Assembly (NCBI GenBank): GCA_045807985.1
Contig: JBJMGL010000127.1
Span: forward strand, 1 to 37,546
Direction: 5' to 3'
Length of the DNA stretch: 37,546 nt
Origin: Bryobacteraceae bacterium
GTDB lineage: Bacteria > Acidobacteriota > Terriglobia > Bryobacterales > Bryobacteraceae
In this document: positions 23,771 through 32,795 of the stretch, in pieces
Numbering within the stretch: the stretch's first letter is position 1
How the letters are laid out: each line of letters opens with the position of its first letter
Notes under the pieces: model-generated
Told to the model about the DNA's origin: nothing
Seen by the model: only the letters and a program-made list of their open reading frames with translations
Databases searched by the model: none
Made by a program: the position numbers and the translations under genes

Positions 23771-25063
23771 CTATGGGGCTTGCACAAGACCAGCGCCTAC
23801 GTCGCTGGCGGGGAATGGCAGATGCTTTGCCGTAGCAATCAGCTTTGCCCGCAGGGCTGCTCCTCGGAGAGACGCGCTGCTCTGGGCCCACAGCGCGGCG
23901 CATCCGGCAACGTGCGGGGTTGCCATGCTGGTGCCGCTGAGCGTATTGTGCAAAGTTGGCCTCTTGAACGATGAAAAGACATTCACACCGGGTCCGGCAA
24001 TGTCTATTTTTCCGCCACAGGAGAACACGGCTACTTTCAGTGCGCTGTCGAGTGCGGCAACCGACATAATAGTCGGTGAATTCGCGGGCGCACCTGCGGG
24101 AACAATAGAGCCGGGACGGTTGCTGGCGTTTCCCGCAGCTGCAATAATCAGACAGCCATGAGCCAAAGCAGCTGCTCCAGCAGCGGTGTAAGAAGGTTGC
24201 ACCGGGATTTGAGCGCCAAGCGACATAGAAATGACGGGGCACTTATTAGCAATGGCCCAGTTCATACCGGCTAGAACCTGCGCTTGTGTTCCCGACCCTG
24301 AATTGGTCAGCACCTTGCCAGTGAAGATAGTTGTCTTAAATCCGATTCCGTAGCGCTGGATCAGACCGGCCGGAGCCTTGGGTCCGCAAGCCGTGCCAGT
24401 CGTATGGGTTCCATGCCCGTGGAGATCTGCCACCGGTTGCCCAACAAAAGTTTGGGCCACAAAGGACCGGCCCACGAAATCAGGGTGTCCAATATCGAAG
24501 CCAGTATCGAGTACCGCCACTTTGATTCCGGTACCGTCGAAGTGACTGGGAGGCACTTTGCACGCGGTGAGACCCCAGGTTACGCCCGATACTTCTGGTG
24601 AAACTCCGTTGGCCACTGCTGTTTCTTCTTCTCCGCCGAGATCCGCGTAGATCGTCTGAGCCGCGCGCACGACACCTTTCAAGTAGTCGGCGGCATGGAT
24701 TTGCGTCGCAAACATGAAGTATTCCGGATCAATGGACTGCACGGGACTATCTTGAGCAATGGAGGTTTCAGCAGTCATGCTGCGCGCGGAAGCTGCTTCG
24801 CCGCTCACCAGAGCCACGCCGATTTCGGGGAACACGAGCGATTCCGCATCTCCGGCCTGCTCAAAGCTCACGGCCTGATCAGTGAAGTCGCGCGCATTTG
24901 CCACTTTGAAGCCGTGCTCCGACTGGAGGGACTGCATGCCCGCCTCGGTAGCGCCTTCCTTGAAGGTCATTAAATAACGTCCGGTTTTCGCGGGGTCGCC
25001 TCCCTGTTCGAGAGCCGCGAGTAAAAGATCATCAACGCTTGTCGATATTCGTAGATCAGCCAT
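23771..25063 (-). CDS. S8 subtilisin-family serine peptidase with N-terminal I9-like propeptide and no signal peptide
   Basis: Catalytic triad contexts 'VAVLDTGFD', 'HGHGTHTTGTA' and 'SGTSMATPHVAG', with oxyanion 'AAAGNAS'. The N-terminus MADLRISTSVDDLLLAALEQGGD has no hydrophobic core. GGAG lies 6 nt upstream of the ATG. Confidence 0.9.
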   Translation of the reverse strand: MADLRISTSVDDLLLAALEQGGDPAKTGRYLMTFKEGATEAGMQSLQSEHGFKVANARDFTDQAVSFEQAGDAESLVFPEIGVALVSGEAASARSMTAETSIAQDSPVQSIDPEYFMFATQIHAADYLKGVVRAAQTIYADLGGEEETAVANGVSPEVSGVTWGLTACKVPPSHFDGTGIKVAVLDTGFDIGHPDFVGRSFVAQTFVGQPVADLHGHGTHTTGTACGPKAPAGLIQRYGIGFKTTIFTGKVLTNSGSGTQAQVLAGMNWAIANKCPVISMSLGAQIPVQPSYTAAGAAALAHGCLIIAAAGNASNRPGSIVPAGAPANSPTIMSVAALDSALKVAVFSCGGKIDIAGPGVNVFSSFKRPTLHNTLSGTSMATPHVAGCAALWAQSSASLRGAALRAKLIATAKHLPFPASDVGAGLVQAP

Positions 25064-25139: not shown

Positions 25140-25243
25140 GATGCATGATAGTGTCGTGAAGTCATTTACCGTTTCCACGAAAGCAGAGTTCTTCCGGATT
25201 TAACGAAAATTTGAGCGGTGTATTGAATTTAATTTGTAAGACT

Positions 25244-26041
25244 ATGACTATCCTAAATGCCACGGTGACGATTGTGCCTCTGGTGCCCAACGCGGTGCTG
25301 CCGCATCCAGCTTCCGCACGGACCCGTGCTATGATTCCTTCTGGCTATGGTGTTCAGGAGCAGTGTTTGCCATTTACCGCGGCTAGCGCCTTGGGCTTCG
25401 TGATACCGTCTCCCATTCGTTGGGGTTTGTGCGTTCCTGAAGAAGCGCCGGAAGGATGCCGCACCTTCCGGTCACCGTTGGATAGCCCGGCTGCCAATGG
25501 GCAGTTTGCGGACGCACGCATCTTCTACGTGATTGATCATCCGGACTGCCGTTTTCATGGCAACGCCTATGCGTTTGAGGGAATTCCGGTCGTTGGCTCT
25601 CGTACATCCACAGTTCAGGAGCCGGGAATCAGTTTTTTCGACCGCCAAGATCAGGGTGATCTGTTTAAGCTGCACCTTCCTTATATCTGGCGAACGCCGG
25701 ACTCGGTGGACACGCTGTTTCTGCCGCTTTTGAACCGCTCGGCTCAGGGGCTGAGTGTCCAAAGCGGTTTAGTGGAAACTGACTGGTACACCAGCCCTGT
25801 TAACCTCATTCTCGGCAAGCCGCCAGGATCGGTCCACGTCCGCCCGGGAGATCCGGTAGCACACGCCATCCTGATTCCGCGCCACTTCCGGCGGCCCACG
25901 CTGGAAGCCGCTCCGGGGCATGCCCGGCTGAGCCGTGATGCTCGCAAGGGTTTGGCTGATTGGGATAAACAGCACGCCGAAGATCGTAGCGCTTATAAGG
26001 TATTAGCGCGCAGTCGACACGGCCGCGTTGAATCGGAATAA
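25244..26041 (+). CDS. uncharacterised protein (possibly DUF6065-like)
   Basis: Long clean ORF. 'EQCLPFTAASALGFVIPSPIRW' resembles the conserved C-x-P-F..A...G motif of a family I recall as DUF6065 (unverified). The start is ambiguous (TTG at 25211 or ATG at 25244). Confidence 0.6.
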   Translation: MTILNATVTIVPLVPNAVLPHPASARTRAMIPSGYGVQEQCLPFTAASALGFVIPSPIRWGLCVPEEAPEGCRTFRSPLDSPAANGQFADARIFYVIDHPDCRFHGNAYAFEGIPVVGSRTSTVQEPGISFFDRQDQGDLFKLHLPYIWRTPDSVDTLFLPLLNRSAQGLSVQSGLVETDWYTSPVNLILGKPPGSVHVRPGDPVAHAILIPRHFRRPTLEAAPGHARLSRDARKGLADWDKQHAEDRSAYKVLARSRHGRVESE

Positions 26042-26048
26042 TCGAAAG

Positions 26049-26492
26049 CTACCAGCCTACTTTCTGTCCGTTCAGCATAATCGTAAACTCCTCATTCTTC
26101 GCTGGAAGTTCGATTTGCGCGGAGAATGGCTGTAACATTTGAGCGCACATTTGGGCCGGATCGGAGACGGACCAAGCTTCAATCCGTAGAACTCTCCGCG
26201 CATCCGGGCTATCGGGAATTTGCAGCCGCAGTTCGTGGCAGGGCGTCGGCAGGTTGCCCTTAATGGCTAATGTCGAGGCAGCCTTCGCAGCAATCCCAAT
26301 AATAGCCGCATGCTGAATTTCGACACTGCCGCGAGTTAGTTTCGAGTCGGCAGGTTTAGGGGAGTACGGATTCAATACCACAGTTTTTACTCTCGGCTGA
26401 GTGTTGCTGCTCGGGGCTGATTTCGGGCTTTGGCACGCTGACAAAAGGGCGCAGGCCAGCGTGATAGCCCTACTTTTCCGGGCGTGTCGCAT
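26049..26492 (-). CDS. lipoprotein, last gene of the PspA/flotillin operon
   Basis: The signal peptide plus lipobox is MRHARKSRAITLACALLSAC. The start overlaps the PspA stop (TAATG). Confidence 0.7.
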   Translation of the reverse strand: MRHARKSRAITLACALLSACQSPKSAPSSNTQPRVKTVVLNPYSPKPADSKLTRGSVEIQHAAIIGIAAKAASTLAIKGNLPTPCHELRLQIPDSPDARRVLRIEAWSVSDPAQMCAQMLQPFSAQIELPAKNEEFTIMLNGQKVGW

Positions 26493-27154
26493 TAATGCTG
26501 CTCTTCGGCTTTTCGAGCTTTTAGTTCGGCTAATAACTGTTCGACCCGGTCTGATTTTTCGAGCGCGGCCAGGCGCTGCTCGGCTCCCGGCTCGGCAGCA
26601 AGGAGGTAACCGCGGCCGAGCGCGTCGGCTTCCGATACCTTTGATTGAGCGCGTTGTAGCAGTGCTTCGCCTTCGAATTCCTTAAGCTGTGCCGTTCCGG
26701 CGCGGGCTGCCAGGCGGGCTCTGCGGTGTTGCGCAATCAGGAGTTCAGTCTTGGTTTTCGTTTCGGTCATTTTCTGCTCCAGCCGGTGCAAGGCGTCGCG
26801 CAGAATGTTTACCTGGTGAGATTGATCTTCAATCTGTTGCGCAAAGTTTTTGGCGGCGTTTTCGTAGGTCAAAGAACGTTCCAATGCGATGCGCGCCAGA
26901 TCTTCTTCATTTTTAGTAATGGCTAGCTCGGCCTTACGCACCCAGTCGCGTTGCGCTTCCAGATTTTCCGTCTGTTTTTTTTCAAGTAGGTGCTGATCCG
27001 CAATGGCAATGGCAACCTGTGTCTTGACTTGCATGAACTGGTTTTGCATGTCGAGGAGAAGCTGCTTGAGCAGCTTCTCCGGATCTTCGGCCTTATCCAC
27101 TAAGTCGTTCAGGTTTGCCCTGATGAGCGTTGTCACTCGATCCAGTAATGGCAT
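26492..27154 (-). CDS. pspA: PspA/IM30/Vipp1-family protein
   Basis: 'MPLLDRVTTLIRANLNDLVDKAEDPEKLLKQLLLDMQ' is the canonical family N-terminus, followed by coiled coil throughout. I prefer the ATG at 27154 (GGGGG/AAGG upstream, 13 nt after the flotillin stop) to the track start at 27220. Confidence 0.9.
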   Translation of the reverse strand: MPLLDRVTTLIRANLNDLVDKAEDPEKLLKQLLLDMQNQFMQVKTQVAIAIADQHLLEKKQTENLEAQRDWVRKAELAITKNEEDLARIALERSLTYENAAKNFAQQIEDQSHQVNILRDALHRLEQKMTETKTKTELLIAQHRRARLAARAGTAQLKEFEGEALLQRAQSKVSEADALGRGYLLAAEPGAEQRLAALEKSDRVEQLLAELKARKAEEQH

Positions 27155-27167
27155 CCTTTTCCCCCCA

Positions 27168-28610
27168 TCAGGCCCTTGGTGTCGAGCCGTTAGCCTTCCC
27201 ATCGGAACCAGAGCGGTCATTGATCCCCCTTACCTTTCCCAATAGTTCGGACATTTGCATTCCAGACAGCGTCTCAAAGAGCGCCGGAATCTGGGCTGCC
27301 ATTTTGGTCATATCGCCAGTAATTTTATGCATGCCGGCAGCTCCGTTTTCGCCAGTGGACACGATCGTGATTTTGTCCACATTGGCAAGCGGTGCCGCTA
27401 ACGCTCTTACGACTTCAGGCATGTTGGTAATGAGTTTGTCCACCACAGCGGCCTGGTTCCATTCCTGATAGGCCTCGGCTTTCACGTTCATTGCCTTGGC
27501 TTCCGCTTCGCCCTTCTTGGCAATGATTTCGGCATCCGCCTCGCCTTGCAACCGCGTCGCGGCAGCAGCGCCTTCAGCTTCGGCAGTCACCTTTCTCCGC
27601 ATGGCTTCAGCGATCATCTCGATCCGTTTCCGTTCGATTTCGGCGCCCTTCAGAACGGTCGCGATGAGTTCCTTTTCGTGACGCAGAATCTCTGCTTCCT
27701 GTACTTTAATTTCACCTTCCTTTTCCACCTGGCGGACCCGAACAGCTTCCGTGGCCACTTGCTGCTGCATGATGTTTGCTTGGATGTCGTATGATTTATC
27801 CGCTTGGGCTTGCTGGCGTTTAATCGTCTCGACGTACTGCGCTTTTCTGATTTCCAGGTCGCGCTGAGCTTCGGCCTGCGCCGCTAAGGAGAGCGCTTCG
27901 GCGAGCACGCGTTCCTGGTCTGCTTGCGCTCTGGCGACCGCAGAGGCTCGCATTGCTTCAGCCCGTTTAATGGCAGTGTCCCGTTCTGCTTCTGCGGCTG
28001 CTACATCCGCATCGCGCCGGATGCGAGCGACATCGGGACGGCCCATATTCGTGATGTATTCGTTTTTGTCGCGAACTTCTTTAATGGTGAAAGAGACAAC
28101 CTCCAGGCCCATCTTGCTCATATCGTCGGCGCAGGTAGCTCGCATGCGGTCGCCTACCATTTCAGGCTCTTTTACGATCTGCTCGACGGATAACTGTCCG
28201 ATGATGCCGCGCAGATGTCCTTCCATGACGAGCCGGATCAAGCCTTCCCGCGCTTGGTCCGTTTTCGTCAGGAATTGCTCCGCGGCGGTTTGGATGGATT
28301 CGGGATCGCTTTTCACTTTAATTTGCGCCACGGCTTCCACAGTCACAGCCACGCCTTGTTTGGTATAAAGATCCTGCTGCGGCGCGACATCGAACGACAT
28401 GAGCTGTAAAGAAAGTTGACGGTAGTTCTCAACCATGGGGACGATCATGGTTCCGTGGCCTTTTACAATGCGGGTTCCGCGTATCCCATACACAATCAGG
28501 GCTTCATGCGGACCCGCTTTTCGATATATCGCCGCCATGGCAGTCATAAAGCTGAGCAGAATCAGCACCACAACGACTGAAATAATCACAACTTCACCGG
28601 ACATTTCCAT
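27168..28610 (-). CDS. flotillin-family SPFH (band 7) protein
   Basis: N-terminal TM, then an SPFH domain ('HEALIVYG...', 'VEAVAQIKV'), then a long Ala/Glu-rich flotillin repeat region ('AEAERDTAIKRAEA..AQAEAQRD'). 480 aa, YqiK/FloT-like. Confidence 0.9.
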   Translation of the reverse strand: MEMSGEVVIISVVVVLILLSFMTAMAAIYRKAGPHEALIVYGIRGTRIVKGHGTMIVPMVENYRQLSLQLMSFDVAPQQDLYTKQGVAVTVEAVAQIKVKSDPESIQTAAEQFLTKTDQAREGLIRLVMEGHLRGIIGQLSVEQIVKEPEMVGDRMRATCADDMSKMGLEVVSFTIKEVRDKNEYITNMGRPDVARIRRDADVAAAEAERDTAIKRAEAMRASAVARAQADQERVLAEALSLAAQAEAQRDLEIRKAQYVETIKRQQAQADKSYDIQANIMQQQVATEAVRVRQVEKEGEIKVQEAEILRHEKELIATVLKGAEIERKRIEMIAEAMRRKVTAEAEGAAAATRLQGEADAEIIAKKGEAEAKAMNVKAEAYQEWNQAAVVDKLITNMPEVVRALAAPLANVDKITIVSTGENGAAGMHKITGDMTKMAAQIPALFETLSGMQMSELLGKVRGINDRSGSDGKANGSTPRA

Positions 28611-29229
28611 TCTCCTTTTGCAATGTTTCTGAACCGAGCCATGGGCTGTTCAACTGGGTCATTGCTTCCCAGGTGCGTACGTATGCAATTCCCTTTTCGT
28701 AGCGGGTGACAATCACTTCTTGTCCACGGCTAATATCGATGTTTTCTTCACTGCGCGCGGGCACCAGCTTTCTGCCTCCGTCACGAAGATAAATCACTTC
28801 GCCCACTCCGCCGGACCGTATCGGGCTGGATACCTGACCGAGTACTCCGGTCATTTCGTAGTCGGCGGGATTCAGCGGGCGCTCACGATTCTGCAAAAAA
28901 TTTAGAAAGCGGGATAAGAGCCAAGCTCCCAGCAGTCCGACTGCGGTTGCGAATCCAAAATCAACCCACAGTTCCAGACCGGAATGGCGTGTGAGCAGGT
29001 AGCCGATGCCGCCAAACCATGCCATGAATACAGCAATGGAGCCTGGGTTCAGCATGTCGGATACATGCGAGTGGCCGTGATGAGCCGGGCCATGGTGACC
29101 CGCCCCGTGATGCCCGTGGTGGCCCAAGTGGAAGTGGCCATGCCCAATGTCCATGCCGCCCAGGAGCGAGATCACGCTCCATAAACCGCCCACCGTCAAG
29201 CAAAACAGATAAATGTCAGGCCACGTCAT
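28594..29229 (-). CDS. NfeD/YqiJ-like membrane protein with a His-rich loop
   Basis: TM helices flank 'GHGHFHLGHHGHHGAGHHGPAHHGHSH'. The C-terminal OB-fold NfeD domain is 'GVLGQVSSPIRSGGVGEVIYLRDGGRKLVPARS...GQEVIVTRYEKGIAYV'. The gene overlaps flotillin by 17 nt. Confidence 0.8.
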   Translation of the reverse strand: MTWPDIYLFCLTVGGLWSVISLLGGMDIGHGHFHLGHHGHHGAGHHGPAHHGHSHVSDMLNPGSIAVFMAWFGGIGYLLTRHSGLELWVDFGFATAVGLLGAWLLSRFLNFLQNRERPLNPADYEMTGVLGQVSSPIRSGGVGEVIYLRDGGRKLVPARSEENIDISRGQEVIVTRYEKGIAYVRTWEAMTQLNSPWLGSETLQKENGNVR

Positions 29230-29707
29230 GTTCCCTTCCTTCTTTCAACTGCAATACTTCCCATAAACGCCCGACGAGATCCGGCGTGTCAAGAATGGCA
29301 GCAAGCAGCAGCAGGCACTTACGCGTGTCACTGTGCCGTGAAATTTGGAGCAATGCTTCTGCCAAAGGGGGATCTCGGCGGAATCGTTCGGCTCCCGCAA
29401 TAAACCAGAGATCCAGTTTGTCCTCCGCATCTCGCAAGTCACTGATCAGTTCTGTTTGAAAGCCTTCCGGATCGTCCACCAGATAACCGGGATGAACACG
29501 AAAGAATTTAGCTAGTAGTAGGCGCGTAGTGTTGGTTAAGTGCTTACGGCGTCCGCTCTCTAATTGCGAAAGATAAGGCTGGCTTACGGTGCGCTGAAAT
29601 TCACTACGGATGGCGCTAACCACCTCCTTTTGCGTCATCTCACGGCCAAGGCCGCGAAGGTGGCCTTCCACGAGGCGGAGATACCGAATTTTCTCGGCAA
29701 CGCTCAT
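29216..29707 (-). CDS. XRE-family helix-turn-helix transcriptional regulator
   Basis: 'MTQKEVVSAIRSEFQRTVSQPYLSQLESGRR' is a Cro/C1-type HTH. The C-terminal domain of about 80 aa is unrecognised. The gene overlaps NfeD by 14 nt. Confidence 0.8.
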   Translation of the reverse strand: MSVAEKIRYLRLVEGHLRGLGREMTQKEVVSAIRSEFQRTVSQPYLSQLESGRRKHLTNTTRLLLAKFFRVHPGYLVDDPEGFQTELISDLRDAEDKLDLWFIAGAERFRRDPPLAEALLQISRHSDTRKCLLLLAAILDTPDLVGRLWEVLQLKEGREHDVA

Positions 29708-29708
29708 A

Positions 29709-29721
29709 TAGCAATCTGCTA
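29709..29721. promoter_or_regulatory. palindrome TAGCA-N3-TGCTA immediately upstream of the XRE start codon (candidate autoregulatory operator)
   Basis: Seen directly. It lies between the putative minus-strand -10 (29724-29729) and the ATG (29707). Confidence 0.3.
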
Positions 29722-29723
29722 AC

Positions 29724-29752
29724 TATATATCACAAATTGCAATCTTCTACAA
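29724..29752 (-). promoter_or_regulatory. putative sigma70-type promoter for the XRE-NfeD-flotillin-PspA operon
   Basis: Reverse strand: TTGTAG (29752-29747), 17-nt spacer, TATATA (29729-29724). This would give a very short leader (~10 nt). Confidence 0.35.
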
Positions 29753-29766
29753 TCCTTTTGTATAAT
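29737..29766 (+). promoter_or_regulatory. putative sigma70-type promoter for the ECF sigma operon
   Basis: TTGCAA (29737-42), 18-nt spacer, TATAAT (29761-66), about 140 nt upstream of the ATG at 29907. Its -35 lies 5 bp from the -35 of the opposing promoter. Confidence 0.45.
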
Positions 29767-29906: not shown

Positions 29907-30482
29907 ATGCTTGTTGAACAAGATCTAATCGAGAAGGCGCGAACCGGGGATGCTGGAGCGTTTAATCAGATAGTTCTGGCTTACCGGCGGCGTATTCTCG
30001 GCACCATCTCGCGGCTAATTGGACGCCCGGAAGATGTTGAGGATGTAGGACAAGAGGTTTTTGTCAGGTTGTACTATTCGTTGGATCAGCTTCGGACCGC
30101 TGAGGTGTTCGAGCCTTGGCTTTACCGGCTGACTGTGAATGCCTGTTATGACTATTTGCGGCGGGCAAAGCGCCGGAATGAATCTCGTATGGCGGATCTA
30201 AGCGAGCAGCAGGTGATGATGGCTGACTCGCTCGCTGGAGGAAGACAGGAAACGGAGGAGCGGCAAAAGGGAGAGACTCGGGAGTTCATGGACGCGCTGT
30301 TTCAGCATGTTTCCGAAGAGGACCGTTTGTTGCTTACTTTGAAGGAAGTGGAAGGGTTGTCGCTGAAGGAGTTAGAACGGATCTACAGGGTGAATGAGAA
30401 CGCGTTGAAAGTTCGCCTTTTCCGTGCTCGTCAGCGAGTTCTGAAGGCATATCAGACTGCTGTTGCGAACGGCAGGTTTTAG
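29907..30482 (+). CDS. ECF-type RNA polymerase sigma-70 factor
   Basis: Region 2: 'EDVGQEVFVRLY......FEPWLYRLTVNACYDYLRR'. Region 4: 'LLLTLKEVEGLSLKELERIYRVNENALKVRLFRARQRV'. Confidence 0.9.
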   Translation: MLVEQDLIEKARTGDAGAFNQIVLAYRRRILGTISRLIGRPEDVEDVGQEVFVRLYYSLDQLRTAEVFEPWLYRLTVNACYDYLRRAKRRNESRMADLSEQQVMMADSLAGGRQETEERQKGETREFMDALFQHVSEEDRLLLTLKEVEGLSLKELERIYRVNENALKVRLFRARQRVLKAYQTAVANGRF

Positions 30483-30501
30483 GGTTAGCTGAGGAGACGC
30501 T

Positions 30502-30870
30502 GTGGATGGTATGAGGAAACAAGAGATGATGAGTGACGACGAGTCCGGACTGGATCAATTCTTCCAGCACTACCGCCGATCGTTTCCCGACATGGAGCCT
30601 TCCGTTAATTTCATGCCCATGCTTTGGCAGAAGATCGAGGCGCGTCATAGCTTTCCGTTTATCTTCCGCAGACTGGGCCGGAGCGTGATGACAGCCTCGG
30701 CTGCCTTATGTTTACTGCTATTGGCGCTGAACTTGGCGACAACACCTCAGATGAGCGCAAGCTACGCGGATGCTCTGATTGCGGAGGGTTCGGCGGAGCA
30801 GACGGACTACACAGAGGCAATCGTAAGCACCTCTTCCCTGGAGGGCGTTCCTTCTCCTCCGCGCCGTTAA
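30502..30870 (+). CDS. putative anti-sigma factor (single-pass membrane protein)
   Basis: GAGGAG lies 5 nt upstream of the GTG at 30502. The layout is a cytoplasmic N-terminus, the TM helix 'VMTASAALCLLLLALNLA' and a short periplasmic tail, in the position directly after the ECF sigma gene. Confidence 0.6.
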   Translation: MDGMRKQEMMSDDESGLDQFFQHYRRSFPDMEPSVNFMPMLWQKIEARHSFPFIFRRLGRSVMTASAALCLLLLALNLATTPQMSASYADALIAEGSAEQTDYTEAIVSTSSLEGVPSPPRR

Positions 30871-30891
30871 GGATTTTGAGTTTAGGTCAGC

Positions 30892-31323
30892 ATGAAGCGA
30901 AATCAGTGGTCGGCTGTTCTCCTGGCAATGTTGCTGTTTTGCTGTGGAGTCGCTGTGGGAGCTTTGGCGCACCGATACTACAGCGCCACGGTTGTGAATG
31001 CGAAAGGCGAAGATTTACGCCAGCATTATTTGTCTGAGATGCGCTCAAAGCTGGGGTTAACGTCCGCGCAGGTGAGCCAGCTTGAAGCGATCATGGACGA
31101 AACGAAAGCGAAAACGAGAGCAGTGCGCGATCAGTACCGGCCTGAGATGCTCAAGGTTAGAAATGAACAGATCAACCGGGTGAAGTCGATTTTAACTCCA
31201 CAGCAGATTCCTATCTACGAGCAGCTTGTCGCTGAACGGGAACGCCGTGCCCGGGAACAGGAAGAGCATGACCGGAAAGAAGAGCAGAAACGGGCCGCGT
31301 CCCGGCATCAATTGACGCACTAG
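30892..31323 (+). CDS. periplasmic LTXXQ-motif protein (Spy/CpxP/ZraP/CnrX-like 'heavy-metal sensor' family)
   Basis: N-terminal anchor/signal 'WSAVLLAMLLFCCGVAVGALA'. Two LTXXQ motifs ('LGLTSAQVSQL', 'ILTPQQIPIY') and a charged helical tail. Confidence 0.75.
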   Translation: MKRNQWSAVLLAMLLFCCGVAVGALAHRYYSATVVNAKGEDLRQHYLSEMRSKLGLTSAQVSQLEAIMDETKAKTRAVRDQYRPEMLKVRNEQINRVKSILTPQQIPIYEQLVAERERRAREQEEHDRKEEQKRAASRHQLTH

Positions 31324-31364
31324 ACAGGTTTAGATACAGACAGCGAGGGGTGTAGAATTGCCGT

Positions 31365-32795
31365 TTGTTCCAATGTCTTGCTGTTTTCGCCTGTGTCAGT
31401 CTCCTTTGTCCCTTCTTGGCTTGGGGGCAAAGGAGACTGACACCCGGTACAGAGCCATTTATAGCTCTGCATGAGCGCTCACTGGCGCTGGTCCATGTGC
31501 GTGTCATTGACGGAACTGGAAGTGCTGCGCGGGAAAATCAAATCGTCGTTATTGAGAACGGCCAGATCCGCGCAGTAGGAACTCCAGAAAGTACCCCGGT
31601 ACCAGCTGGCGTGCGGCAACTCGACTTATCTGGGCATACCGTCTTCCCTGGCTTAGTCGGTATGCACGAACACTTATTTTATCCTTCTGGCGGCGGTGTG
31701 CCGATCTATAGTGAGCAGGCATTCAGCGCACCGCGCTTGTACCTCGCCTCAGGTATCACAACCATGCGAACCGGCGGTTCGCTTGAGCCTTACACAGATA
31801 TTAATATCAAGCGGCTTATCGATGCAGGTAAAATGCCAGGACCCAAAATGGACGCTACCGGACCCTATATTGAAGGACCCGGCAGTTTTTCCATTCAAAT
31901 GCCGAGTATCAATTCGCCGGAACAAGCTCGCCGTACAGTGGATTTTTGGGCGCGCGAAGGCGCTACTTCTTTCAAGGCATACATGAATATTTCGCATGAC
32001 GCACTTGGTGCGGCGATTCAGGAAGCTCACCGGCGCGGGCTGAAGATGACTGGACATCTCTGCTCAGTTGGCTTCACCGAAGCAGCGGAACTGGGCATCG
32101 ACAACCTGGAGCATGGCCTGTTGGTAGATGCTGAGTTTGCTTCCGGCAAGCAGCATAACGCGTGCCCGAGCAATCAGCAGGTAATGGCCTCCATCATGAG
32201 CTTAGATTTGAAGGGACCGGAAGCGCAACGTATGATTCGTACTCTAGTGGGGCATCATGTTGCCATTACGTCTACTCTGGCGGTGTTTGAAGCTTTTCTG
32301 CCCGGACGTCCGCTATTCGAAGAGCGCCAACTTCAAGCAATGTCGCCGGAAGCAGCAATTAGCTACTTGACAGCCAAGGAACGCGTTAGTCATGGCACCA
32401 TCCGCGACGAGAAATGGCTTAGAAAAGAAATGGAGTTCGAGCGGGAATTTGTTGCAGCGGGCGGTTTGTTAATTGCCGGTTGTGACCCTACGGGCAATGG
32501 TGGCGCTCTGCCCGGCTTTGGCGATCAGCGAAACTTAGAATTGCTGGTGGAGGCGGGTTTTAAGCCGGAGGAAGCAATACGCATTTATACGCTGAATGGG
32601 GCGCAATATCTGGGCCAGGCGGATCGCATTGGCTCGATCAACTCCGGTAAGCAGGCTGATTTGGTTGTTGTCGAGGGTGATCCTTCCGCTCAAATCGCTG
32701 ATTGCGAAAAGGTCAAATATGTATTCAAAGAAGGTGTTGCTTATGACCCGGCAAAGCTGATTGACTCTGTGCGCGGCACACTTGGTATTCACTAA
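31365..32795 (+). CDS. amidohydrolase-family metallo-hydrolase (probably secreted)
   Basis: 'VHVRVIDGTG', 'PGLVGMHEHL' (HxH metal site), 'FKAYM', 'GHL', 'CDP', 'ADLVVVEGDP'. The only in-frame start before the domain is the TTG at 31365 (a stop lies at 31353). Confidence 0.8.
   Translation: MFQCLAVFACVSLLCPFLAWGQRRLTPGTEPFIALHERSLALVHVRVIDGTGSAARENQIVVIENGQIRAVGTPESTPVPAGVRQLDLSGHTVFPGLVGMHEHLFYPSGGGVPIYSEQAFSAPRLYLASGITTMRTGGSLEPYTDINIKRLIDAGKMPGPKMDATGPYIEGPGSFSIQMPSINSPEQARRTVDFWAREGATSFKAYMNISHDALGAAIQEAHRRGLKMTGHLCSVGFTEAAELGIDNLEHGLLVDAEFASGKQHNACPSNQQVMASIMSLDLKGPEAQRMIRTLVGHHVAITSTLAVFEAFLPGRPLFEERQLQAMSPEAAISYLTAKERVSHGTIRDEKWLRKEMEFEREFVAAGGLLIAGCDPTGNGGALPGFGDQRNLELLVEAGFKPEEAIRIYTLNGAQYLGQADRIGSINSGKQADLVVVEGDPSAQIADCEKVKYVFKEGVAYDPAKLIDSVRGTLGIH
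31394..31442. repeat. perfect 15-bp inverted repeat with a 19-nt spacer
   Basis: TGTCAGTCTCCTTTG (31394-31408) is the exact reverse complement of CAAAGGAGACTGACA (31428-31442). It lies inside the predicted signal-peptide codons of the amidohydrolase ORF. Confidence 0.8.

Follow-up and report, generated by a model that had tools for sequence, protein, structure and literature searches.

PspA has been found encoded next to flotillins in earlier in silico surveys. Popp et al. (2022, mSystems, PMC9239133) found PspA adjoining Band7_Flot in 11 of 19 Acidobacteriota cases, named NfeD as a neighborhood partner and noted helix-turn-helix (HTH) regulators in PspA operons, and Ravi et al. (2024, PMC11237479) described PspA operons having transmembrane (TM) plus Band-7 plus flotillin proteins and YqiJ/YuaF proteins, with NfeD–flotillin pairs being widespread also without an adjacent PspA. 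In Bacillus subtilis, the SPFH protein YdjI is required for PspA to be localized and to form membrane foci (PMC8581546). We here analyzed a stretch of 37,546 nucleotides from a Bryobacteraceae bacterium (contig JBJMGL010000127.1 of assembly GCA_045807985.1, hereafter called the window), in which five consecutive genes encode an XRE-type regulator, a His-rich NfeD-family membrane protein, a flotillin, PspA and a lipoprotein. The window matches the neighborhood given by Popp et al. (PMC9239133), with PspA, Band7_Flot, NfeD and an HTH regulator all present and ordered.

The regulator, NfeD, flotillin and PspA genes were found to be a tightly packed, real operon and a conserved, co-oriented four-gene unit of Terriglobia, widespread among soil Acidobacteriota, with the lipoprotein gene being a local add-on that is not part of the conserved unit. 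The genes are placed in the window as follows.

29707-29216, minus strand: regulator, 163 aa
29229-28594, minus strand: NfeD-family membrane protein, 211 aa
28610-27168, minus strand: FloT-type flotillin, 480 aa (478 aa if the ATG at 28604 is used)
27154-26492, minus strand: PspA/IM30, 220 aa
26492-26049, minus strand: lipobox protein, 147 aa

This layout, with five minus-strand genes joined by overlaps of 14 and 17 nt, a 13-nt spacer and a TAATG, was read directly from the sequence and agreed with the initial annotation of this DNA, as did the identities of the five gene products, which were supported by domain or profile matches and a lipobox. The regulator and NfeD genes share the 14 nt at 29216-29229, and the NfeD and flotillin genes share 17 nt, or 11 nt when counted from the second flotillin ATG at 28604, the spacing of which to AAGGAG is better than that of the first ATG. 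Between the flotillin stop and the PspA start the sequence reads TGA-tggggggaaaagg-ATG, giving the 13-nt spacer, and the TAATG is a stop/start overlap of PspA and the lipoprotein, so that in the window the lipoprotein must be co-transcribed with PspA and is probably translationally coupled to it. The mechanically called open reading frame of PspA begins at 27220, and we set the start at 27154 because of the Pfam alignment and the length of the relatives (219-222 aa). A simple promoter and terminator scan gave no minus-strand sigma-70-consensus promoter and no intrinsic terminator within the operon, with the number of promoter-like matches being that expected by chance.

Two terminal peptide motifs are artefacts of the overlaps. 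The H-[DE]-[LV]-A at the C-terminus of the regulator (29216-29229) is the same DNA as the N-terminal M-x-W-P-D of NfeD, and the QKE..NVE at the C-terminus of NfeD (28594-28624) is the Shine-Dalgarno sequence and start of flotillin in another frame. The former was considered as a ClgR-like degradation tag and rejected as evidence, since its 14 nucleotides also specify the N-terminus of NfeD, which is nearly invariant.

The regulator is encoded in at least 584 genomes, counting one representative per species, and conservation was judged using the best 80, all of them being Acidobacteriota of the class Terriglobia (Bryobacterales, Terriglobales and Acidobacteriaceae); their loci are denoted here by L numbers. 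In all 80 loci, up to where a contig breaks off, the genes run on one strand in the order regulator, NfeD, flotillin, PspA. PspA followed flotillin in 68 out of the 68 loci that were complete at contig level, with the contigs of the other 12 breaking off within or ahead of flotillin, while NfeD was present in 67 of the 68 complete loci and directly preceded flotillin in 79 of 80 as far as contigs reach, the exception being L045. Finding one four-gene order in 80 independent genomes goes far beyond what chance would produce. Flotillin was the most conserved of the four proteins, with a median identity to the window of 77%, compared to 68% for the regulator, 56% for PspA and 44% for NfeD. The isolate Acidobacteriaceae bacterium TAA 166 (locus L051) carries the operon, further carriers being Edaphobacter and Acidobacterium genome bins. 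The lipoprotein was found in none of the 80 related loci, using either phmmer or a family hidden Markov model. Profiling of the gene neighborhood, proposed in the initial annotation as a check of a five-gene unit, hence recovered the four-gene order across Bryobacterales, Terriglobales and Acidobacteriaceae but not the five-gene order.

The spacing of the genes varied between the loci as follows.

Regulator/NfeD junction: overlap in 54 of 73 loci, gap above 100 nt in 3 of 73
NfeD/flotillin junction: 30 nt or less in 37 of 64 loci, gap above 100 nt in 17 of 64
Flotillin/PspA junction: 30 nt or less in 28 of 67 loci, gap above 100 nt in 26 of 67

Since many relatives have gaps of more than 100 nt, being tightly coupled throughout characterizes the sub-lineage of the window; the coupling asserted at first thus holds for the window itself but not as a general trait. 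Downstream of PspA the other lineages had varied genes, including convergent genes and ordinary metabolic genes, the latter being, by eye, an alcohol-dehydrogenase-like/short-chain-dehydrogenase-like pair and a thioredoxin-like protein.

Aligning the region upstream of the regulator gene in the 80 relatives together with the window (81 loci) gave a promoter having two palindromes, with the following elements in the window.

29747..29752, minus strand: inferred -35 hexamer, TTGTAG in the window, family consensus TTGAC
29729..29743, minus strand: putative operator O1, ATTGCAATTTGTGAT, a 15-bp palindrome filling the -35/-10 spacer
29724..29729, minus strand: inferred -10 hexamer TATATA, family consensus TATnAW, with one base in common with O1
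29708..29722, minus strand: putative operator O2, TTAGCAGATTGCTAT, a 15-bp palindrome adjoining the ATG, over the expected transcription start

A position-anchored consensus of 78 of the 81 loci has TTGAC 17 nt upstream of TATnAW; the -35 of the window matches the consensus at three of six positions and was missed by the simple promoter scan. O1 and O2 occupy equivalent positions in 75-78 of 81 loci and are separated, start to start, by 21 bp, i.e. two helical turns, in 73 of 75. O2 lies two bases after the -10 box in the family alignment and adjoins the ATG in 49 of 75 loci. The palindrome has the consensus ATYGCA-N3-TGCRAT over 15 bp (O1 consensus ATTGCAAnTTGCGAT, O2 consensus ATTGCAGATTGCAAT), with positions A1, T2, C5, G11, A14 and T15 being invariant or nearly so. 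The TAGCA-N3-TGCTA palindrome that had been pointed out as a possible regulator site (TAGCA-gat-TGCTA, 29710-29722) lies inside O2 and turned out to be part of one of these two conserved candidate operators. Scanning the window with a position weight matrix (PWM) ranked O1 best at 21.9 bits and O2 second at 15.6 bits, and across the 80 loci sites of at least 13 bits numbered 160 in the 90 nt upstream of regulator genes versus 21 in the remaining approximately 1 Mb. A wider regulon within the window was considered and rejected, with the next PWM match, of 12.9 bits at 32694, being within a coding region and probably due to chance.

With O1 in the -35/-10 spacer and O2 over the start, a geometry typical of repression, occlusion of the promoter and autorepression would be implied. 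The same geometry would place the start of the transcript inside O2, giving a message leader of at most about 10 nt, without a Shine-Dalgarno sequence. Operator-like sites (e.g. TTAGCAATTAGCAAT, partly in tandem) were also seen in the NfeD–flotillin gap of L036, L054, L063, L066 and L067. These five loci belong to one Acidobacteriaceae sub-lineage, in which this gap is 250-300 nt, and the sites lie at about +1110 to +1390 from the regulator start, which suggests an internal flotillin–PspA promoter under the same regulator.

The match of the regulator to HTH_3 had an E-value of 8.5e-4, under the Pfam cut-off. A closer relative was found in Mycobacterium tuberculosis EspR, residues 25-80 of which matched regulator residues 24-80 (phmmer E 5e-8; family profile E 1.2e-7), with the recognition region S-PYLSQL-SG-R in common. 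EspR was the only solved relative at this E-value level. The protein is thus predicted to consist of an EspR-like XRE-type HTH at residues ~24-80 and a helical C-terminal domain at ~85-163. At least 7999 homologues of the regulator were found at E 0.001 in a search limited to 8000 candidates, the best 120 of which were 74-99% identical and nearly all 163 aa long. The C-terminal 80 residues, helical by prediction, matched 166 cluster representatives among 1.84 billion, and this domain appears to be confined to the family because the search returned almost solely the regulator's own family or fragments thereof. The extra C-terminal domain that had been proposed was thereby supported, while the analogy drawn to ClgR became looser than had been stated, the closest solved relative being EspR. 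An AlphaFold2 (AF2) model built from 23 close homologues reached a mean predicted local distance difference test (pLDDT) value of 49 and was unusable for a fold search. Judged by sequence, an EspR-like HTH together with a C-terminal domain confined to the regulator family is what the present analysis adds for this protein.

The NfeD protein gave no match in our local copies of Pfam or NCBIfam. It and its homologues carry the precomputed PF25842 NfeD_TM, the source databases name homologues as NfeD family or COG1585, and a profile of 34 homologues matched the soluble domain of YuaF (2k14) at E 5e-5 over 71 residues. Hydropathy and the profile match together suggest an architecture of a first TM segment (TM1), a His/Gly-rich loop, two more TM segments and a YuaF-like C-terminal beta domain. 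The loop holds 13 His in 35 residues (residues 26-60; 29053-29157), and the family keeps its composition but not its length, which ranges between about 20 and more than 60 residues. The loop should lie in the cytoplasm if the YuaF-like domain does, and metal binding or pH sensing are possible roles for it.

Flotillin matched Band_7 at 2.2e-28 and Flot at 3.3e-8 in Pfam, and the NCBIfam FloT model at 1.7e-92 over positions 1-475 of 477, although under its equivalog cut-off of 700 bits. Its architecture comprises an N-terminal membrane anchor (hydrophobic segment at residues 1-32), an SPFH domain, an Ala/Glu-rich coiled coil and a flotillin C-terminal domain. PspA matched PF04012 PspA_IM30 of the ESCRT-III superfamily at 3.6e-32 over residues 3-216 of 220, as well as TIGR02977 at 8.5e-34, under the equivalog cut-off, and its N-terminus MPLLDRVTTLIRANLNDLV resembles, by eye, the helix alpha-0 of PspA.

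The fifth protein carries a lipobox LLSAC and belongs to the Pfam family PF27154 ORF11_beta. Twenty homologues were found, and among seven contexts of the family that we examined it was encoded next to PspA only in the window and in L083. In L085, which has a regulator (P0123) 94% identical and an NfeD (P0005) 81% identical to those of the window, the lipoprotein is lacking and the operon ends at PspA, followed by a convergent gene for an M4 peptidase with an emfourin inhibitor. In L081 and L088 the lipoprotein (48-52% identical) instead has an S8 peptidase gene on one side and a convergent DUF6065 gene on the other, PspA and flotillin being absent, whereas the lipoprotein of L087 (76% identical) and those of L082 and L089 are found in other contexts, not next to PspA. 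Distant relatives are located after RtcB. Genes of the same two kinds as in L081 and L088 adjoin the lipoprotein gene in the window, both of them outside the operon.

25211-26041, plus strand: DUF6065 gene (Pfam 1.8e-8), convergent, 7 nt from the lipoprotein stop
23771-25063, minus strand: S8 subtilase (Peptidase_S8, 1.6e-38)

Most simply, the lipoprotein may be read as a member of this neighboring S8/DUF6065 group whose gene was joined in one lineage to the 3' end of the operon. The initial annotation had taken it as a dedicated component of the system, a proposal contradicted by its absence from the 80 loci and from L085 and by relatives that reside beside S8/DUF6065, or in unrelated contexts, without PspA. 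An AF2 model showed an 8-strand beta sandwich (pLDDT ~90 for residues 40-147), with two Cys conserved in the family, and a fold search of the model against the PDB gave no match, the best E-value being 0.16. As an observation in its own right, the ORF11_beta lipoprotein, DUF6065 protein and S8 subtilase make up an uncharacterized trio that travels with or without the PspA operon (window, L081, L083 and L088), and the M4 peptidase and emfourin inhibitor at the position of the trio in L085 hint at a protease/inhibitor theme.

On the other side of the operon, and divergent from it, the plus strand at 29907-32795 encodes an extracytoplasmic function (ECF) sigma factor, an anti-sigma-like protein with one TM segment, an LTXXQ/Metal_resist (Spy/CpxP-like) periplasmic protein and an amidohydrolase. 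Synteny of the ECF, anti-sigma-like and LTXXQ genes is limited to about 12 of the nearest loci, three of which have the amidohydrolase in synteny as well. This cluster is a second envelope-stress unit adjoining the operon. A promoter-like site, TTGCAA-18-TATAAT at 29737-29766 on the plus strand, points toward the ECF sigma gene and has its -35 inside O1, whereby the regulator could also shut this divergent promoter; we do not claim such co-repression, since by eye the -10 was not conserved in L008 and L012 and the number of such matches was that of chance. Elsewhere in the window, an island of about 770 bp (2060-2830) has a G+C content of ~73% compared to ~54% in the rest, with overlapping open reading frames on both strands. 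The island had no Pfam, tandem-repeat or Rfam match; foreign DNA, a join made in assembly or an element that is not annotated are possible explanations for it. Searches of the whole window with Rfam (gathering thresholds) and Tandem Repeats Finder gave no matches.

Taking these results together, we consider it likely that the locus is a conserved four-gene Terriglobia operon, autorepressed through two operators, in which a flotillin scaffold aids PspA, with the lipoprotein attached in one lineage. Dimers of the regulator would sit on the two palindromes, on the same face of the DNA, and repress the operon that encodes it. Membrane stress would relieve this repression, with our preferred guess being that this occurs via the family-specific C-terminal domain, e.g. 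through feedback from free PspA. By means of its cytoplasmic beta domain, NfeD may anchor and organize the flotillin scaffold, as has been proposed for YuaF-FloT and YqiJ-YqiK, and the scaffold may help to bring PspA to damaged membrane, by analogy with YdjI in B. subtilis (PMC8581546). The lipoprotein would ride on the operon transcript only in the lineage of the window.

Several points weigh against this interpretation. What is said here on repression, on a short leader, on the signal that induces the operon and on every contact between its proteins is predicted, and the window's own -35 (TTGTAG) is weak. The alignment to EspR ends at residue 80, and the AF2 model of the regulator is too poor for comparing the C-terminal part with the dimerization domain of EspR. 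A third of the relatives have flotillin–PspA gaps of 100-680 nt, which allow for separate promoters and independent regulation, and five loci have the operator-like sites inside the NfeD–flotillin gap. Conservation was, moreover, judged on near relatives, the best 80 of at least 584 loci.

The most serious competing explanation, possible although we find it clearly the less probable, is co-regulation without cooperation, with NfeD–flotillin and PspA being parallel, independent effectors under one promoter. This would compare to yuaFGI and pspA of B. subtilis, which are both in the regulon of the ECF sigma factor sigma-W but in separate operons. The frequent long gaps between flotillin and PspA (above 100 nt in 26 of 67 loci) would suit such an arrangement, as would the wide occurrence of NfeD–flotillin pairs without an adjacent PspA (PMC11237479), and contact between a FloT-type flotillin and PspA is a prediction. 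Against it stand the order of flotillin and then PspA in 68 of 68 complete loci, kept across divergent families while PspA itself has a median identity of 56%, and the need for an SPFH protein in forming the membrane foci of PspA in B. subtilis (PMC8581546). A more far-reaching version of our own interpretation, which we regard as speculative and rather unlikely, would make the C-terminal domain of the regulator a sensor that binds free PspA, or the cytoplasmic domains of NfeD or flotillin, as co-repressor, so that recruitment of PspA to damage releases the two-operator repression. If true, the PspA-PspF partner switch would have a counterpart built on a repressor, common to hundreds of soil Acidobacteriota species. 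It is unlikely, furthermore, that the main stress input comes from the divergent ECF sigma factor (29907-30482) with the anti-sigma-like and LTXXQ proteins, leaving the HTH protein as an activator or fine-tuner. The three genes start 199 nt upstream on the other strand and keep their synteny in about 12 of the nearest loci, and an ECF sigma factor drives both systems in B. subtilis, as mentioned; most of the 80 loci, however, lack the cluster next to the operon yet retain both operators and the sigma-70-like -35/-10, we identified no ECF-type promoter, and operators placed in a 17-nt spacer and over the start fit repression rather than activation.

The integrated five-gene machine of the initial annotation, with the lipoprotein as a dedicated outer-face partner and lesions being sensed and patched on both faces of the inner membrane, is in our view very unlikely, and as a conserved module it is largely refuted. 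The TAATG does make the lipoprotein a part of the PspA transcript, and L083 has the same junction. Nevertheless, the lipoprotein is missing from 80 of 80 loci and from L085 with its 94% identical regulator, the lipoproteins of L087, L081 and L088 are not next to PspA and the distant ones follow RtcB, its usual S8 and DUF6065 neighbors adjoin it also in the window, and the genes after PspA vary in other lineages. Sensing of metal or phage damage across both membrane faces likewise found no support. Phage damage had been raised there as one possible stress and PspA was first found as a phage-induced protein, but an anti-phage defense or abortive-infection module of membrane proteins appears extremely improbable, with a PADLOC scan of six proteins matching no family, the proteins having no nuclease, NTPase or toxin domain, and the locus belonging stably and in synteny to the core of many Terriglobia genomes and not to a variable island.

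In soils, Acidobacteriota rank with the most abundant bacteria, and to our knowledge almost nothing is known from experiments about how they protect their membranes. The operon ties a flotillin scaffold to a repair protein of PspA/ESCRT-III type under one promoter, and is the cleanest natural argument for cooperation of flotillin with PspA, an idea that has so far been tested only in Bacillus and there with a different SPFH protein. Its two-palindrome operator and small, dedicated regulator make for a directly testable regulatory switch.

Compared with the yuaF-floT(-yuaI) operon of B. subtilis and yqiJ-yqiK of Escherichia coli, the window likewise has an NfeD gene directly upstream of flotillin, a flotillin made up of TM, SPFH, coiled coil and flotillin domain, and an NfeD C-terminus that matches YuaF, but those operons lack PspA and a dedicated HTH regulator. 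We know of no description of a long His/Gly-rich loop after TM1 in YuaF or YqiJ. The pspA-ydjGHI (samGHI) operon of B. subtilis also combines PspA and an SPFH protein in one stress operon (PMC8581546; bioRxiv 10.64898/2026.02.06.704340). There, however, PspA comes first and an HTH gene is missing, and YdjI, an SPFH protein of the cytosol, is recruited by YdjG/YdjH (zinc-ribbon, TPM), whereas the window has no YdjG/YdjH genes and its flotillin is FloT-type, membrane-anchored and partnered with NfeD. In clgR-pspA-pspM-pspN of M. tuberculosis a Cro/XRE-type HTH gene heads a pspA operon as in the window, which has NfeD and flotillin instead of PspM (Rv2743c-like) and PspN (DUF3046) and a regulator having EspR as its nearest solved relative. 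With regards to the classical psp system (pspF/pspABC), no PspB, PspC or AAA+/sigma-54 activator domain was found in the flanking genes scanned.

EspR itself (3qwg, 3qf3, 3r1f, 4ndw) has an HTH clearly related to that of the window regulator, both proteins being two-domain with a C-terminal extension, and it recognizes TTTGC[TC][GA] and regulates its own promoter (PMC3315491); the operator half-site WTTGCRAT shares the TTGC core of that motif. Unlike the regulator studied here it has no link to PspA or flotillin, and it is a nucleoid-associated protein that has hundreds of sites and binds to distant ones as a dimer of dimers, whereas the regulator family has two compact palindromes at one promoter.

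The initial annotation had held that the module was not a characterized one. This was right insofar as no experimental study of an Acidobacteriota module was found in the literature, and a search under the spelling 'Acidobacteria' with flotillin and phage shock protein found none either, Popp et al. writing 'Acidobacteriota'. It was not right for the architecture, already described in silico (PMC9239133, PMC11237479), nor for recruitment of PspA by an SPFH protein, shown in B. subtilis (PMC8581546). The operons of Ravi et al. (PMC11237479) involve CesT/Tir, AAA+ ATPase and phospholipase D, which that of the window does not have, while it does have an HTH regulator, and the network of Popp et al. 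(PMC9239133) was drawn at the level of Pfam domains from 19 PspA genes, without any operator, promoter, regulator subfamily, experiment or lipoprotein. As the architecture is already published, the gain of the present study is one of detail and testability rather than of kind. What goes beyond the literature is the EspR-like regulator with its orphan C-terminal domain, the promoter with its two putative operators and predicted short leader as a new detail of the published architecture, and the placing of the lipoprotein outside the module.

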